This document shows, one piece after another, positions 54,416 through 60,794 of a DNA stretch of 64,000 bases. The translations under genes were made by a program, and so were the position numbers. The notes under the pieces were generated by a model, which saw only the letters and a program-made list of their open reading frames with translations, was not told where the DNA came from and did no database searches. Position 1 is the first letter of the stretch, and every line of letters begins with the position of its first letter. Origin of the DNA: Nanobdellota archaeon (lineage in GTDB: Archaea > Nanobdellota > Nanobdellia > Woesearchaeales > JAHIVG01); contig JAZDHH010000008.1 in the NCBI GenBank assembly GCA_043806015.1, forward strand, positions 37,695-101,694. Direction: 5' to 3'.

Positions 54416-55573
54416 ATGATAGATCGACTGAGTCAGTATAACCTTTGGGACCGTGAGCAGGACTTTGGGGTAGATCGCCTTTTTGCCTATCCTCAGATCG
54501 TCGATCTGCTCAGCCGCAAGGAGATTCAGGTTCTTACCGGCATAAGGCGGTGCGGCAAGACCACGCTCATGCGTCAGTGCATGCGCCACTTGGTTGACAC
54601 TGGTGTGGATCGTAAGGACATTCTTTTTGTTCCATGTGATAATCCTCTGCTCAAGCTGAAAGATTTTGAAAAGCTTCACAAGCTTCTCCAGGAGTTCCGC
54701 AAGAATAAGGAACGTAGAATGTATGTCTTCCTCGACGAGGTGCAGGCAGTCAAGGGTTGGGAGCGTTACCTGAAGAGTGTTTATGATTCCGGCGCTCCCA
54801 TCAAGTTTGTGATCTCAGGCTCGACAGCTTCCTTTTTTGCAGGCGACGTTGCCTCGCTATTGACCGGTCGGCATTTTTATCATCGGATCGAGACCATGCG
54901 GTTCAAGGAGTTTCTGCGCCTTCGTCCGGACGGCGGTTTACGAGAGTACGTTGAGTGGGGAGGTTTTCCTGAGGTCATTAAGGCAAGCGTCACCCAAAAG
55001 CCAGCCTTGCTCGAAAGCTATCTGCAAACGGTCCTGCAGCGCGATATCATCGAGCGCTATGACATCCGCAACACGAAGAAGCTGTCAGATCTGCTCAAGA
55101 GCATTCTTTTCACCGTCGGCGGGAAGGTGAATATGGCAAAGCTCTCGAAGCAATTTGCCATGAATCCCCGGAGCATCGAGCGTTACATCAACCTGGCAGA
55201 GGACGCGTTCCTCTTCAAGGAAGTGCCCTTCTTTTCCTATTCGAGGCGGAAGAATCGGCACACGCTTCCCAAGCTGTATCCGGCGGACATTGGCTTCACC
55301 AGGATCCTTACGAAACGCTTTGAGGAAGGTAGAGGCACCGAGTGGGCGGTCGCGCATGCGCTTGAGGAGCCTTCCTACTGGTCGGATGGCAAGCATGAGA
55401 TCGATTTTGTGACTAAAGACGCTGCGATCCAGGTGACGACGGCGACGCGAATTCCTGTGCGTGAAACCGAGGCTCTGAAAGTCTTCACGAAGAAGTATCC
55501 ACTTAAGCCTATCTTGATTGGTCCGCAGACCACGGACGCAACCATATCTGTGGGGGAGTTTCTGGTGCAATAA
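54416..55573 (+). CDS. AAA+ ATPase with a DUF4143-type C-terminal domain (COG1373-like)
   Basis: Walker A is LTGIRRCGKTTL and Walker B is YVFLDEVQ. The C-terminal part is typical of archaeal DUF4143 ATPases. Confidence 0.85.
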   Translation: MIDRLSQYNLWDREQDFGVDRLFAYPQIVDLLSRKEIQVLTGIRRCGKTTLMRQCMRHLVDTGVDRKDILFVPCDNPLLKLKDFEKLHKLLQEFRKNKERRMYVFLDEVQAVKGWERYLKSVYDSGAPIKFVISGSTASFFAGDVASLLTGRHFYHRIETMRFKEFLRLRPDGGLREYVEWGGFPEVIKASVTQKPALLESYLQTVLQRDIIERYDIRNTKKLSDLLKSILFTVGGKVNMAKLSKQFAMNPRSIERYINLAEDAFLFKEVPFFSYSRRKNRHTLPKLYPADIGFTRILTKRFEEGRGTEWAVAHALEEPSYWSDGKHEIDFVTKDAAIQVTTATRIPVRETEALKVFTKKYPLKPILIGPQTTDATISVGEFLVQ

Positions 55574-56623: not shown

Positions 56624-58099
56624 TTACGTCCCCTCGTTGAACGCGATCCTGTTGCTCTGCTTGCTCAGCATGACGCCGCGCCGGTCCTTGAACTTCACCG
56701 TGGCAGCGGGCAGGTCGATGCCGCCGATGATATGCAGGCTGCTCGTGAGCTGGTAGGTGATGATGCGCTCCTCGAAGGGCTCGAGGGTGTTCAGCTCCCA
56801 GATGACCAGGGTGGCTCTCGCGTGCTTGGCGATGATCCTCGTGGGCTTCACGGTGCCGACGGCGAAGTCGCTCTCCAGCTGCGTTATGTTGGGGATATGG
56901 TCGACGACCCTGAGCTGCTCGAACATGCTCTTGGTGCGGTTCTTGATGTGGATGACGACCTTCATCTTGAAGATGCCGCCCGCCTTGTCCTCGGAGCGGT
57001 GCACCTCGGAAAGGTGCTTCTTCACGATGACCGGGCTGCGGAACTTGAAGTAGGCGAGGATGATCAGCAGGATGATGATCGCCGCATAGAGGACGGGCAG
57101 GTAATTCTGCTTGATCGTGATGGCCACGGTCTGCGGCCCGGCCTCGTTCTCCGCCCGGAGGTTGATGTTCCAGTAGTAGGCGTACTTGCCGTTCTCGCTC
57201 CTCAGCTTGGTCTTGGGCTCGGTTGCCGTGAAGAGCGCGACGAACGGGGAGATCCCCTGGGTGACAAGGGTCGAGCGCTCGATGTTGCCGCGGTTGGTGT
57301 AGGTGAGAGTCGTCTCCTTCTTCAGGAAGCCTGATGTTTTCCTCTCCTGCGATTCCAGCTCGGAGTAGGCCATGACGTTGAAGGCCATGGGCATGAGCTC
57401 CCAGGTGAAGGTCTCATTCTGGGAGAAATAGCTGGCAGTCACCGAGACAGCGTCTTTCGCGGGCATGGTGAAGGGGTTGAAGCTCAGGCGCACCTCTTGC
57501 TTGCGCTCCTCGTTCGGGGAGAGCGCGAGGGTGAGCTGCTGCTGCGAGAGCAGGCTTATTACGTCGACGTGGAGATTCTCGATGGGCCGCGGGTTGTTGT
57601 TCTTGATGGTGAGCCTGATCACGAGCTGCTCCCGGGGATCCACCTCGGTGGCTGCGAGCGTCGCGGACATGCGCACGTCGGGCAGGTATTCGCGCTGCTC
57701 GGTCGTGCCGTGCTGCACCTCGATCGGCACGATGCTCCTGATCCTCGTGCCGCTCTCCCTGGACTTGACATCGATGAACAGGCGGTAGAGGGCGTAGCCG
57801 ACGTACAGCGGCCTCATCTTGACGACCACTGTCTTGGTCTCCATGGCGCCGATGGTCACGACATAGTCTGTCCGCGGCTCGGTGTAGAAGTCCCAGTCCG
57901 GGACATTGGGCGAATCGATGGTGAATTCGGCAGCCATGTCTAGGTTGTTCTTGATGGTCATCCGGATGGTCGCCTCGTCGACGCCGTCGAAGAAGACGAT
58001 GGACTTCACGGGCTCGGCCGTGACCTCGAACTCGTCAAGGGCGATGACGCTGGTGGTGAGCAGGACTGCTAGGACGAGGAAAAACAAGGCTTTTTTCAT
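56624..58099 (-). CDS. Membrane-anchored surface protein (beta-sandwich repeats, one TM, ~140-aa cytoplasmic domain)
   Basis: The signal is MKKALFFLVLAVLLTTSVIA, starting at the ATG at 58099. The TM is YLPVLYAAIIILLIILAYF. No catalytic motif was seen. Confidence 0.75.
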   Translation of the reverse strand: MKKALFFLVLAVLLTTSVIALDEFEVTAEPVKSIVFFDGVDEATIRMTIKNNLDMAAEFTIDSPNVPDWDFYTEPRTDYVVTIGAMETKTVVVKMRPLYVGYALYRLFIDVKSRESGTRIRSIVPIEVQHGTTEQREYLPDVRMSATLAATEVDPREQLVIRLTIKNNNPRPIENLHVDVISLLSQQQLTLALSPNEERKQEVRLSFNPFTMPAKDAVSVTASYFSQNETFTWELMPMAFNVMAYSELESQERKTSGFLKKETTLTYTNRGNIERSTLVTQGISPFVALFTATEPKTKLRSENGKYAYYWNINLRAENEAGPQTVAITIKQNYLPVLYAAIIILLIILAYFKFRSPVIVKKHLSEVHRSEDKAGGIFKMKVVIHIKNRTKSMFEQLRVVDHIPNITQLESDFAVGTVKPTRIIAKHARATLVIWELNTLEPFEERIITYQLTSSLHIIGGIDLPAATVKFKDRRGVMLSKQSNRIAFNEGT

Positions 58100-58131
58100 G
58101 AGCGGCACCACTCTCGTATGGTTAAAGGTGC

Positions 58132-58139
58132 TTTAAATA
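58132..58139. promoter_or_regulatory. Palindromic TTTAAATA box in a divergent promoter region
   Basis: It lies between the divergent starts at 58099 (-) and 58210 (+). A GGGGGTG SD-like element precedes 58210. Confidence 0.45.
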
Positions 58140-58209
58140 GTTTTCGTTCCACCCTTAAAGCCGCAATCTATTAATAGCAAGTCCCTTTTCCAGGGAAGGG
58201 GGTGTCAAT

Positions 58210-59724
58210 ATGCGTAAAATAGGCGTCTTCGGCATGGGGGCCATAAGCCCTATCGGCAACAGCGTCCCTGAGCTCTGGCAGAGCCTCTTGGACGGGAAGT
58301 CAGGCATCGGCCCCATCACCCATTTCGATCCAGCTGATATCGTTTCTTTCGTGGAGCCTTCTGCCCAGCAACCCCTCATCGCGGAAGTGACCGACGCTGA
58401 AGGAAAAAAAACCTACATAGACCTCGCGGCAAAAGGACCGATACGGCTCGTGACGAGGAGCGGCGAAACGTATGAGCCCACAACGGTGCGGATCCCGAGG
58501 TCCTTCTCTATCGAGACAAGGGAGTCCGCGGAGGTCAGGGACTTTGACGCTGAAGCGATCCTTGCCTCTTATATCCAACGGCACCCTCGCTTTGCAAGCC
58601 TCCCTCCAGAAGAAGCAGCGAGCCTCGCGAGGGGGTCATTGCGGCAGTTCGATCCTTTTTCCTTGTTCGCAATAGCGGCGACCATGGAAGCGGTTTCCGG
58701 CATCCCAGTCATCGAGGATCTTTTTCGCGTAGGAGACAAGCGGAAAGCAGATGAGCGCAACGACCGTGCAGGATGCTACATCGGCACAGGCATCGGCGGA
58801 GCGCAGACCTGGGAAAGGGGCTATCACGAATTCCTTCTGCGCGGACCTTCCCGCGTCGGTCCAAGGGTCATTCCCGGCCTCATGGCAAACCGCCCGGTCT
58901 CTGACATCGCGACGCTGTTCGGGCTCACCGGAGGAGGCTATGCTGTCGTGAACGCCTGCGCCTCAGGCAAGAGCGCCCTTATGACCGCGATCGAGGCCAT
59001 CCACGCGGGCACCCTTGACCTGGCGGTTGTCGGCGGAACGGAAGCATGCGATACTGCGTACACGGTTTCCGGCTTCACCAACATGCAGGCCCTGGCCAAG
59101 TCTTCGCGCTACGCTTCCCCCGAAGCGGCGAGCAGGCCGTTCGACATTGATCGTTCAGGATTTGTTATCGGAGAAGGCGCGGCCATGTTCGTCATCGCCG
59201 ACCTCGATTATGGCAAGAGTCTCGGCCTGAAACCGATCGCGACTATACTCGGCTATGGGATGAGCAATGACGCCTTCCATCCTACTGCTCCGCATCCAGA
59301 TGCGTTAGGCATGATCGTCAGCATGCGGAATGCGCTCGGGATGGCAGACATCCGCCCATCCCACGTCGATTACATCAACTCCCATGGCACCTCGACCGAG
59401 CTCAACGATCCCTTGGAGGCGAAGGCGATCGAGGAGGTGTTCGGCGATTGGGCCGAGACTGTGCGGGTCACCTCGACCAAGGCGAACCACGGCCATCTCC
59501 TCGGCGCAGCAGGAGCGCTCGAGTCCGCAATCGCCATCCAGGTCTTGCGGCACGGCATTGTGCCTCCTCAGGCAAACCTCAACGCCGTCGACCCGGCTTG
59601 CGCCAGGCTCAACATCCCGACGCGGGCCATGGAAGGAGACTTCAGGGTAACCATGTCCAACTCGCTCGCCTTCGGCGGCGGCAACGCGACGATCATCTAT
59701 GCCAGGCCAGACTTCCAGAAATGA
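58210..59724 (+). CDS. Beta-ketoacyl synthase, KAS II (FabF)-like, with N-terminal insertions
   Basis: The Cys-His-His triad is present in conserved context: VVNACASGKSAL, NDAFHPTAPHP and YINSHGTSTELND, plus STKANHGHLLGAAG and SNSLAFGGGNA. The protein is 504 aa, against ~410 aa for typical FabF. Confidence 0.9.
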   Translation: MRKIGVFGMGAISPIGNSVPELWQSLLDGKSGIGPITHFDPADIVSFVEPSAQQPLIAEVTDAEGKKTYIDLAAKGPIRLVTRSGETYEPTTVRIPRSFSIETRESAEVRDFDAEAILASYIQRHPRFASLPPEEAASLARGSLRQFDPFSLFAIAATMEAVSGIPVIEDLFRVGDKRKADERNDRAGCYIGTGIGGAQTWERGYHEFLLRGPSRVGPRVIPGLMANRPVSDIATLFGLTGGGYAVVNACASGKSALMTAIEAIHAGTLDLAVVGGTEACDTAYTVSGFTNMQALAKSSRYASPEAASRPFDIDRSGFVIGEGAAMFVIADLDYGKSLGLKPIATILGYGMSNDAFHPTAPHPDALGMIVSMRNALGMADIRPSHVDYINSHGTSTELNDPLEAKAIEEVFGDWAETVRVTSTKANHGHLLGAAGALESAIAIQVLRHGIVPPQANLNAVDPACARLNIPTRAMEGDFRVTMSNSLAFGGGNATIIYARPDFQK

Positions 59725-59731
59725 GAAAAAA

Positions 59732-59985
59732 TGGGGCCACCGTGACTTTCAAGCTGTTCTCTCAAGGGGGCTTGAGCGCGTAGCGCGAAACCCCCAAAGC
59801 GGTCATGTCTTTCCGTAAAGGAATGAAGGACCGCGCTGGTATTTTTCCCAGGTTTTTTTTGTCCGTGAGGACAAAAAAAGCTGTTTGAACACGGGTCACT
59901 AGCTGTCCGTCTCATCGATTCGGCGGGAACCGCCGCTCTTGACGTCCCCGAGCTAGTAGGATAGACCAGGCTACCCTATGGCCCC
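59732..59985 (-). tRNA. tRNA-Pro (anticodon CGG or GGG; register ambiguous) with two introns (~41-43 nt in the anticodon loop; 138 nt in the T-loop at 59/60)
   Basis: Acceptor GGGGCCA/TGGCCCC. D arm GGGT-AGCCTGGTCTA-TCCT (Pro-like). Anticodon stem (A)CTAGC/GCTAG(T). Variable loop TGAC. T arm CCGTG-TTCAAA[59883-59746]T-CACGG. TTTTAAAT lies ~29 nt upstream and a T6 run follows the 3' end. Confidence 0.7.
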
Positions 59986-60010
59986 ATGGAAAGAAGGAAA
60001 TCCGGCGTGT

Positions 60011-60018
60011 TTTTAAAT
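60011..60018 (-). promoter_or_regulatory. TATA box for tRNA-Pro
   Basis: TTTTAAAT centred ~29 nt upstream of the tRNA 5' end at 59985. Confidence 0.5.
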
Positions 60019-60031
60019 CTTGTGACAATGC

Positions 60032-60038
60032 TTAAATA
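60032..60038 (+). promoter_or_regulatory. TATA box (TTAAATA) for the GT2 gene
   Basis: Centred 28 nt upstream of the ATG at 60063, consistent with a leaderless mRNA. Confidence 0.5.
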
Positions 60039-60062
60039 GAAAAGCGCTGCTCCCTCCGTGCC

Positions 60063-60794
60063 ATGGGGCCGGCTCTCGTTTCGGTTGTGATGACTAACTT
60101 CAACTACGGCAGGTTTATTGCTGAATCGGTGGAAAGTATAGTTGCCCAGACCTATAGGCCGTTGCAGTTGATCCTTGTCGATGATGCCAGTGAGGATGAT
60201 TCTCGCGAGCGGATTGAGAGGCTGCAACAGAGGCATAAGAGCAGGTTCCAAGGCTTCACAGTCGTGTTACTCGACGAAAATAGGGGGATTAATGGCGCCC
60301 TCAACCGGGCCATTGCTGAAGTCGGGGGAGAGGCAACGGCCGTCCTCGACGCGGACGACCGTTTTGCGCCTGACTACCTCGAGAGGACTGCCGCCCTCCT
60401 GTTTGCAGGGTCTCCCTCATTGGGATTTGTCTATACGGATTGCGCGCTCATTGACGATCAAGGAAGGTCGCTTGGCTTTGGTCATTCCAATGCCTTTGAT
60501 GCAGAATTATTGAGAGAAAAGAGCTATATCCCGGGCTGCGGGACGACGAAGACCGAGGCCCTGATGGCAGCGATGCCATTGGATGAATCCATTGAAGTGG
60601 CGACCAAGGTTTATCGCTGGCGGGACATCGTCGCCCATGGCTTTGTCGGCCTCCACATCCCCGAGCCTCTTTTTTTCTATCGGATGCATGGCGCGAATGT
60701 GTCTGGCATCGGACGAAGGATCATCGCCGATCTCAATGCCGGCAATCAGAGTGCCATCCTCTCAGGCTACTGGCAAAGCCACGATCCTAAGTGA
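60063..60794 (+). CDS. Glycosyltransferase family 2
   Basis: VSVVMTNFNYGRFIAESVESIVAQTY..LQLILVDDASEDDS, followed by LDADD (DxD). Confidence 0.85.
   Translation: MGPALVSVVMTNFNYGRFIAESVESIVAQTYRPLQLILVDDASEDDSRERIERLQQRHKSRFQGFTVVLLDENRGINGALNRAIAEVGGEATAVLDADDRFAPDYLERTAALLFAGSPSLGFVYTDCALIDDQGRSLGFGHSNAFDAELLREKSYIPGCGTTKTEALMAAMPLDESIEVATKVYRWRDIVAHGFVGLHIPEPLFFYRMHGANVSGIGRRIIADLNAGNQSAILSGYWQSHDPK

Follow-up and report, generated by a model that had tools for sequence, protein, structure and literature searches.

The membranes of archaea and bacteria are chemically distinct, a contrast known as the 'lipid divide', and DPANN archaea are believed to obtain lipids by scavenging. In bacterial-type fatty-acid synthesis the contacts between the acyl carrier protein (ACP) AcpP and the elongating enzyme FabF, or beta-ketoacyl-ACP synthase (KAS) II, have been mapped; the AcpP-FabF interface comprises region 1 (K65, R68 and K69), region 2 (R127, K128 and R206) and a hydrophobic patch that includes F132, and when AcpP serves one active site, most of its contacts are with the opposite subunit (Mindrebo et al., PMC7138838). 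Woesearchaeota carry bacterial-type genes for fatty acid and lipid enzymes (FabG, FabI, FabZ and glycerol-3-phosphate dehydrogenase) for which the nearest hits outside DPANN are bacterial, as reported in two surveys (Castelle et al. 2021, PMC8204110; Zhang et al. 2024, PMC10936187). Here we describe a FabF/KAS II-like ketosynthase (hereafter KS) encoded within a 64,000-nucleotide stretch of DNA (the window; C8:37695-101694, contig JAZDHH010000008.1 of assembly GCA_043806015.1) from a Nanobdellota archaeon of the order Woesearchaeales, a DPANN lineage. By sequence comparison the KS gene is intact and encodes a FabF-type condensing enzyme with a complete catalytic set and predicted activity, and on our best reading its partner-docking face has been remodelled, in a genome in which our searches detected neither ACP nor its activating enzyme AcpS.

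KS matches both ketoacyl-synthase families of Pfam (PF00109 and PF02801, the N- and C-terminal parts, E ~1e-34 each), and its best NCBIfam model is fabF (TIGR03150), with a score of 390.4 bits that lies under the curated cut-off of 493.75 and an alignment that is broken into two parts by insertions. The protein likewise scores 369.6 bits against PRK07314 (cut-off 387), far more than the 221 bits obtained with the KAS I (FabB) model PRK07967 (cut-off 630). The Thiolase_N match, at 24.7 bits against a cut-off of 26.4, is sub-threshold and spans the region of the active-site cysteine only. An AlphaFold2 (AF2) model of KS, built from a 90-sequence alignment, has a mean predicted local distance difference test score (pLDDT) of 89.6, with values above 90 in the core, and its top Foldseek matches are solved FabF structures with TM-scores by target length of 0.93-0.96. 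Residue equivalences were taken from an alignment to E. coli FabF (from NC_000913). They place the catalytic triad at C250/H392/H429 (Table 1), and KS also keeps Asp354 (D265), Thr394 and Thr396 (T305/307), the gating Phe488 (F400) and the FGGGN motif. An earlier interpretation made from the DNA letters without database searches (hereafter the sequence-only reading) had recognised the cysteine in ACASG, the histidine in NSHGTST, the GHLLGAAG loop and the terminal FGGGN, all of which stand; it had also taken the histidine of (F)HPTAP as catalytic, but this residue, His357, is a conserved motif residue outside the triad, whose third member, His429, sits in GHLLGAAG. Of 24 Woesearchaeal KS, 23 have every one of the catalytic residues tested. 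The genome holds a single ketoacyl-synthase gene, so there is no paired KS/chain-length factor.

The residues through which bacterial FabF meets its carrier are less well kept. In region 2 the equivalents of R127, K128 and R206 are S214, R215 and Q293, and F132 of the hydrophobic patch is replaced by R219; together with region 1 (Table 1), two of the six docking positions are basic in KS. In a comparison set of 66 FabF-like proteins drawn from databases, of which all that carry a name are bacterial, the mean is 4.7 basic residues at these positions and one protein alone has two or fewer. For the 24 Woesearchaeal KS the mean is 3.7 lysines or arginines, and among bacteria, too, the patch is variable. 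Directly preceding the equivalent of docking region 1, and ending exactly at G142, lies the smaller of two insertions.

The enlarged N-terminal region described in the sequence-only reading was confirmed by two alignment methods. With phmmer, residues 1-43 and 134-499 of KS align to residues 1-43 and 55-407 of T. thermophilus FabF, which leaves ~79 residues extra, and a MAFFT alignment of KS with 28 other KS sequences resolves these into insertions of ~57 and ~20 residues. Insertion 1 falls in the surface loop that connects strand beta2 to strand beta3, after HFD (D40) and before SAEVRDFD, and is modelled with pLDDT values of 44-59, whereas the region of insertion 2 is modelled as two helices (residues 114-124 and 133-144) with pLDDT values of 86-95; a handful of further extra residues is found near positions 165-180. 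Neither insertion matched a Pfam family or a recognisable domain, no second copy was seen across the genome, and their composition resembles that of the remaining gene; on these grounds a mobile element, an intein or copied DNA was rejected as their source. That insertion 1 arose by tandem duplication of the segment containing beta3 was also considered and rejected, as the protein self-alignment scores no better than shuffles (612 of 1000 reach the score). An imperfect direct repeat of 21 nucleotides (58380-58400 and 58527-58547; 71% identity, spaced by 147 nucleotides or 49 codons), whose copies encode AEVTDAE and AEVRDFD, gives a faint hint that the insertion may have begun as such a duplication.

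Comparison with other members of the order indicates how this loop may have grown. In what follows, G001 and G002 are genomes of two sister genera in the same family as the present genome (G000). At the site of insertion 1 the KS of G001 has ~20 extra residues and that of G002 has ~25-30, as against ~57 here, a length series which suggests that the loop was already expanded in the ancestor of the family and grew further in this genome. Independent insertions in the same loop are present in four other genomes of the order (G090, G094, G170 and G084), and the loop thus appears, from these alignments, to be a hot-spot tolerant of insertions. No close relative with the insertion was found in 5.8 billion proteins or in 1.84 billion representatives, the latter search being swamped by giant multi-KS polyketide synthases (PKS). 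Both insertions would be lineage-specific expansions, placed in a tolerant surface loop at the border of the ACP-docking face.

The contig is truly archaeal (Nanoarchaeota/Woesearchaeales), as the sequence-only reading had assumed when it placed a bacterial-type KAS II in an archaeal genome. The genome (1.56 Mb in 24 contigs) is 100% complete with 0.19% contamination by marker genes, its small- and large-subunit ribosomal RNAs are archaeal, and split archaeal-type rpoB''/rpoB'/rpoA' genes lie upstream of KS within the window, 5-11 kb away, while genes for Rad50 and MTHFR lie downstream. The GC content at third codon positions (GC3) of KS is 0.71, the 41st percentile among open reading frames (ORFs) of the genome, and its overall GC content is also typical. 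The names given at NCBI to proteins of its relatives likewise assign the order to Nanoarchaeota/Woesearchaeota. In both G001 and G002 the KS orthologue is located between the same membrane-protein gene and Rad50. The block is collinear in G001, with identities of 76% for rpoA'', 81% for rpoA', 90% for rpoB', 87% for rpoB'', 75% for rpoH, 49% for the membrane protein, 42% for KS and 52% for Rad50; across the two genomes the values are 75-90% for RNA polymerase, 42% for KS and 52-61% for Rad50, so that KS, at ~42% within the family, is the least conserved gene of the syntenic block. No frameshift or stop is present in the KS of any of the three family members, and the G001 gene is interrupted solely by a contig break, at which its two pieces overlap. 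With these flanking genes and a syntenic KS in two sister genera, the gene is neither a contaminant nor a recent arrival.

Across Woesearchaeales, FabF-like genes were detected in 28 of the 401 genomes, a count that includes the unpublished genomes G184 and G374, both of which were excluded from all alignments, trees and later searches. In a quick maximum-likelihood tree KS groups with its orthologues from G001 and G002 (SH-aLRT 94), with that of G090 adjacent, and the branches of the family are long; the backbone does not resolve, and for this reason no bacterial donor can be named from the tree. Forcing the 24 Woesearchaeal KS into one clade gave a better likelihood than the free search (p-AU 0.76, approximately unbiased test), so that a scenario of one ancient gain with many later losses is not rejected. 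Among 5.8 billion proteins the highest identity of KS to any relative is 44%. These comparisons point to KS as an old resident of Woesearchaeales that evolves fast and that, within the family, has passed down by vertical descent without changing its place on the chromosome. The proposal that the enzyme was acquired holds as regards its bacterial type, but the synteny in the sister genera, the distribution in the order and the single-clade result show that the acquisition was neither recent nor private to this genome.

The sequence-only reading had also described KS as standing alone in the window, and a blast search with reference Fab proteins against all ORFs of the genome agrees, as it returned only KS inside the window and no ACP, FabD, FabG, FabH or FabZ homologue there. 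The picture changes outside the window. A FabD-like transacylase on contig C19 scores 198 bits with the fabD model (cut-off 261) and keeps Q11, S92, R117, H201 and Q250. A FabH-like synthase on contig C15 (7033-8316, minus strand), which adjoins radA, is 427 residues long as compared to ~320, owing to several insertions; it keeps the Cys-His-Asn residues, has a low GC3 (9th percentile) and carries a proline at the position of E. coli FabH R249, which we take to be an ACP-docking residue. A single gene for a FabG-like short-chain dehydrogenase/reductase (SDR) lies 3.6 kb beyond the window. This is far from a full set. No ACP was found in the genome with the PP-binding family PF00550, nor was a divergent ACP found with two custom hidden Markov models (mixed bacterial/G001; Woesearchaeal, all frames of at least 30 residues) run with --max. 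AcpS, FabA/Z, an AMP-binding ligase and a clear GpsA were sought in the genome and not found. A full elongation cycle is therefore not present, as the FabG-like SDR is joined by neither FabA/Z nor a carboxyltransferase, FabI having had no separate search.

A similar shortage of carriers extends across the order. Partner genes were tallied in the 26 published KS-positive genomes: PlsC was found in 18 and a FabH-like synthase in 16, FabD and PP-binding domains in seven each (19 genomes being without the latter), AcpS in five (21 without), and FabZ and the acetyl-CoA carboxylase (ACC) carboxyltransferase in two each. The KS-positive genomes that lack carriers or AcpS include assemblies of 6-30 contigs. 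Order-wide, PP-binding domains were detected in 61 of 401 genomes (a tally that includes the unpublished G122, G184, G210, G245 and G315), and where carriers and AcpS were found, they were clustered together away from KS. In G001 (G001:C22 6292-9947, minus strand) such a cluster, compact in layout, encodes AcpS, a small carrier protein bearing the motif LVDSFG, an enzyme of the FkbH-like HAD/glyceryl-loading type (303 bits with TIGR01686) and a fusion of MaoC dehydratase and methyltransferase; it resembles the extender-unit modules of PKS systems, here in a DPANN archaeon. The neighbours of KS are of a different kind. A FabH-like gene often adjoins it, an AMP-ligase gene precedes it in G090, and in G156 (G156:C56 3759-7143, minus strand) a FabF-like KS heads an operon with GpsA (NAD-dependent glycerol-3-phosphate dehydrogenase) and PlsC, followed by a PfkB kinase, an arrangement which ties the KS of this order to bacterial-type glycerolipid synthesis. 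Separately, many Woesearchaeales have ORFs of ~730-870 residues that join a PP-binding domain to a PlsC-type acyltransferase (e.g. G135:C3:101358-102071, G188:C38 and G166:C334); these resemble bacterial Aas-like lipid re-acylation enzymes and explain many of the carrier-domain hits of the order.

Our preferred reading, which we hold tentatively and at somewhat less than an even chance, is that KS is an active KAS II from an old, eroding bacterial lipid toolkit and that its docking of a canonical ACP has been lost. Cys250 would load an acyl chain, as in the bacterial relatives, and His392 and His429 would decarboxylate a malonyl thioester to give a beta-ketoacyl product two carbons longer (i.e. 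the standard decarboxylative Claisen condensation). The toolkit (FabF and FabH, with FabD, GpsA and PlsC in some cases) would be patchily retained in Woesearchaeales, the partners remaining in this genome being a FabD-like transacylase that is presumably malonyl-specific, a FabH-like synthase that would initiate the chain, and one SDR. KS would probably no longer dock a canonical acidic AcpP and may instead use CoA or pantetheine thioesters, or else a carrier that has escaped recognition or is provided from outside. What has been shown is the gene itself, its fold and catalytic residues, its archaeal setting, synteny and distribution, and that our searches detect no carrier genes in the assembly; the activity, the substrates and any role of the insertions are inferred, and in these terms the modified function proposed in the sequence-only reading is plausible, given the eroded docking patch and the ACP and AcpS that were sought and not found. 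A broader version, in which Woesearchaeal FabF- and FabH-like enzymes would be ACP-free, using CoA or pantetheine thioesters or host-derived carriers or acyl groups in a minimal hybrid lipid pathway, and in which the KS of this family, given the insertion at docking region 1 and the few docking charges left, would stand as the furthest-derived example known of a KAS II independent of ACP, strikes us as doubtful.

Several observations weigh against loss of ACP docking in an active enzyme. The FabD-like protein keeps its malonyl-binding arginine and the basic residues aligned to E. coli FabD K189, R190 and R287, presumably ACP-docking positions, and this argues that some carrier still exists; as the assembly is in 24 contigs, an ACP gene of 240 nucleotides could sit in a gap. 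Several Woesearchaeal KS from carrier-less genomes retain five of the six basic docking residues, which makes the erosion particular to the KS family of this genome and not order-wide. Neither an ACC carboxyltransferase, as a source of malonyl-CoA, nor a consumer (PlsC or PlsY) was found in the genome, which leaves the pathway incomplete on both sides. In addition, KS evolves faster than the neighbouring genes, which is also compatible with relaxed selection, and insertion 1 is modelled at low confidence.

These points feed into other explanations. The nearest named database relatives of KS outside the order are all bacterial FabF, at ~44% identity, as might be expected of a bacterial contaminant or of a chimeric join in a metagenome-assembled contig, the possibility that the sequence-only reading had itself raised. 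This is highly improbable and in effect refuted, since archaeal genes lie within 5 kb on both sides, the gene order is shared with two other genomes of the family, contamination is low, and GC and GC3 are typical. KS could also be an ordinary ACP-dependent FabF with insertions that are neutral decorations, whose ACP and AcpS were missed by the assembly, have diverged beyond detection or come from a bacterial host. We regard this as unlikely, while giving it real weight: besides the fragmented assembly and the FabD-like gene, with its malonyl specificity and its presumed docking residues, the sister genome G001 does have an ACP-AcpS pair, some Woesearchaeales have AcpP-like carriers with a DSLD motif, and many KS of the order keep five of the six basic docking residues. 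Some Woesearchaeota have moreover been proposed as episymbionts of bacteria (Castelle et al., PMC8204110), which would suit a carrier supplied by a host. Nevertheless, three independent searches found no ACP, and none found AcpS, in a genome scored as 100% complete; the ACP of G001 lies in the FkbH/MaoC-methyltransferase cluster, apart from KS; the 19 of 26 KS-positive genomes without carriers include near-closed ones; FabZ and ACC genes are not found either; and the docking patch of this KS is the most eroded.

The faster evolution of KS could instead mark a decaying remnant, i.e. a toolkit in the course of being lost, with KS under relaxed selection, the insertions a symptom and little or no function left. 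Most partners are gone from this genome, the identity of KS (~42%) is the lowest in the block and its branches are long, and the insertion, which is predicted to be poorly ordered, varies in length among the three genera (20, 25-30 and 57 residues). Yet all three family members have an intact reading frame and, despite the low overall identity, a full complement of catalytic residues, the core is modelled with pLDDT values above 90, and the same locus has been retained across three genera with a genome-typical GC3, all of which make a remnant rather improbable. A ketosynthase of polyketide or other secondary metabolism, for example in a dispersed type II PKS-like system, would account for scores under the curated FabF cut-offs, and PKS-like genes do exist in the order (the FkbH-type extender-unit cluster of G001 and a PKS-like KS-AT-ACP gene in G239). 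We consider this very unlikely, as FabF takes the top places among both the sequence models and the structures matched, the genome has one KS and no KS/chain-length factor pair, no ACP, cyclase or tailoring genes lie near KS, and elsewhere in the order KS is found with GpsA and PlsC. The reading that we favour remains that of an active KAS II which has lost canonical ACP docking.

The immediate surroundings of KS are listed with its own features in Table 1. The A/T-rich boxes ahead of the gene may serve as its promoter. Just past the KS stop codon, a doubly interrupted tRNA-Pro was looked for at 59732-59985 and was reported neither by ARAGORN nor by an Rfam E-value search over 59600-60100. The conserved block is flanked by genes for an AAA_14/DUF4143 ATPase (54416-55573, plus strand) and a GT2 glycosyltransferase (60063-60794, plus strand), neither of which is at these positions in G001 and G002; with GC3 values of 0.62-0.64, as against 0.81-0.94 in the surrounding core genes, they look like variable fillers, possibly recently acquired.

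Table 1. Features of the KS gene and its upstream region, in positions of the window.
Feature	Position	Strand	Basis or remarks
FabF/KAS II-like ketosynthase (KS) gene P0001	58210..59724	+	ORF list and translation; 504 aa, ATG start
Insertion 1, residues 41-104	58330..58521	+	64 aa versus ~7 in bacterial FabF (~57 extra)
Insertion 2, ~residues 121-141	58570..58632	+	~20 aa extra; alignment to E. coli FabF
Docking region 1 equivalents G142 (K65), R145 (R68), Q146 (K69)	58633..58647	+	Alignment to E. coli FabF
Active-site Cys250 codon (= E. coli FabF C163), in ACASG	58957..58959	+	Alignment; invariant in 90-sequence alignment
Catalytic His392 codon (= H303), in NSHGTST	59383..59385	+	Alignment; 90-sequence alignment
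Lys424 (= K335) to catalytic His429 (= H340), STKANHGHLLGAAG segment	59479..59496	+	Alignment; 90-sequence alignment
Predicted membrane/surface protein, 495 aa, divergent from KS	56624..58111	-	No Pfam family; 48-49% identical orthologues adjoin KS in G001 and G002
Intergenic region, 98 bp, between divergent membrane-protein gene and KS	58112..58209	.	Read from sequence
TATA-like A/T-rich boxes TTTAAATA and ATTAATA	58133-58140 and ~58170-58176		Intergenic; putative promoter
Shine-Dalgarno-like GGGGGTG	5 nt ahead of KS ATG		Intergenic 58112..58209

The wider interest of KS is that a conserved, catalytically intact elongating enzyme of bacterial type has long been kept in an archaeal order, mostly without a carrier or the enzyme that activates it, which raises the question of what is condensed, and on what carrier. 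Should ACP-free activity prove true, KAS II would gain a new mode of operation, and nature would offer an example of how a fatty-acid pathway can be rebuilt in an archaeal cell; if ACP is present in closed genomes, KS comes down to what is already on record, bacterial lipid genes in Woesearchaeota, as an unusually decorated enzyme. KAS II annotations in Woesearchaeota are already known, since NCBI automatically annotates the Woesearchaeal relatives as beta-ketoacyl-ACP synthase II, as are bacterial fatty-acid genes in this group (PMC8204110, PMC10936187). Those surveys describe the same phenomenon at survey level, and in their available portions FabF, the lack of ACP and AcpS, and the insertions are not named; nor, in the parts of the literature consulted, did we find a description of the insertion-bearing, docking-eroded form or a report that ACP and AcpS are systematically missing alongside FabF and FabH in the order.

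Fatty-acid synthesis without ACP has itself been considered for archaea. The preprint on the S. acidocaldarius FAS (fatty-acid synthase) complex (10.1101/2024.07.05.601840) has archaeal fatty-acid chemistry without ACP in common with the present case, and is silent on DPANN and FabF. The ACP-independent archaeal pathway uses a condensing system of the thiolase/DUF35 type, whereas KS belongs to the decarboxylating Cys-His-His KAS enzymes. Lombard and colleagues reportedly proposed ACP-independent archaeal fatty-acid synthesis in 2012. Measured against bacterial FabF/KAS II (T. thermophilus 1J3N, B. subtilis 4LS5, and E. coli 1KAS and 6OKG), KS has the same two-domain thiolase fold, at the TM-scores given above, the Cys-His-His triad, the equivalents of Lys335, Thr305/307, Asp265 and the gating Phe400, and ~37-45% identity in the core. 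It differs from them in being ~80-90 residues longer, chiefly through the two insertions ahead of helix alpha2, in scoring under the NCBIfam cut-offs, in its two of six basic docking residues and its arginine for F132, and in lying outside any fab operon in a genome with no detected ACP or AcpS. Closer to it are the FabF-like synthases of other metagenome-assembled Woesearchaeales and Nanoarchaeota (MBU0979713.1, RMF55846.1, MBI2129924.1, HLD88639.1 and others), which have the same catalytic residues, possibly form a single clade, are mostly without carrier genes and in several cases use the same loop for insertions. These enzymes are mostly 409-442 residues long, 45-49% identical to E. coli FabF and endowed with four or five of the basic docking residues, and among them KS and its two orthologues in the family represent the long-branch, insertion-bearing and docking-eroded extreme.

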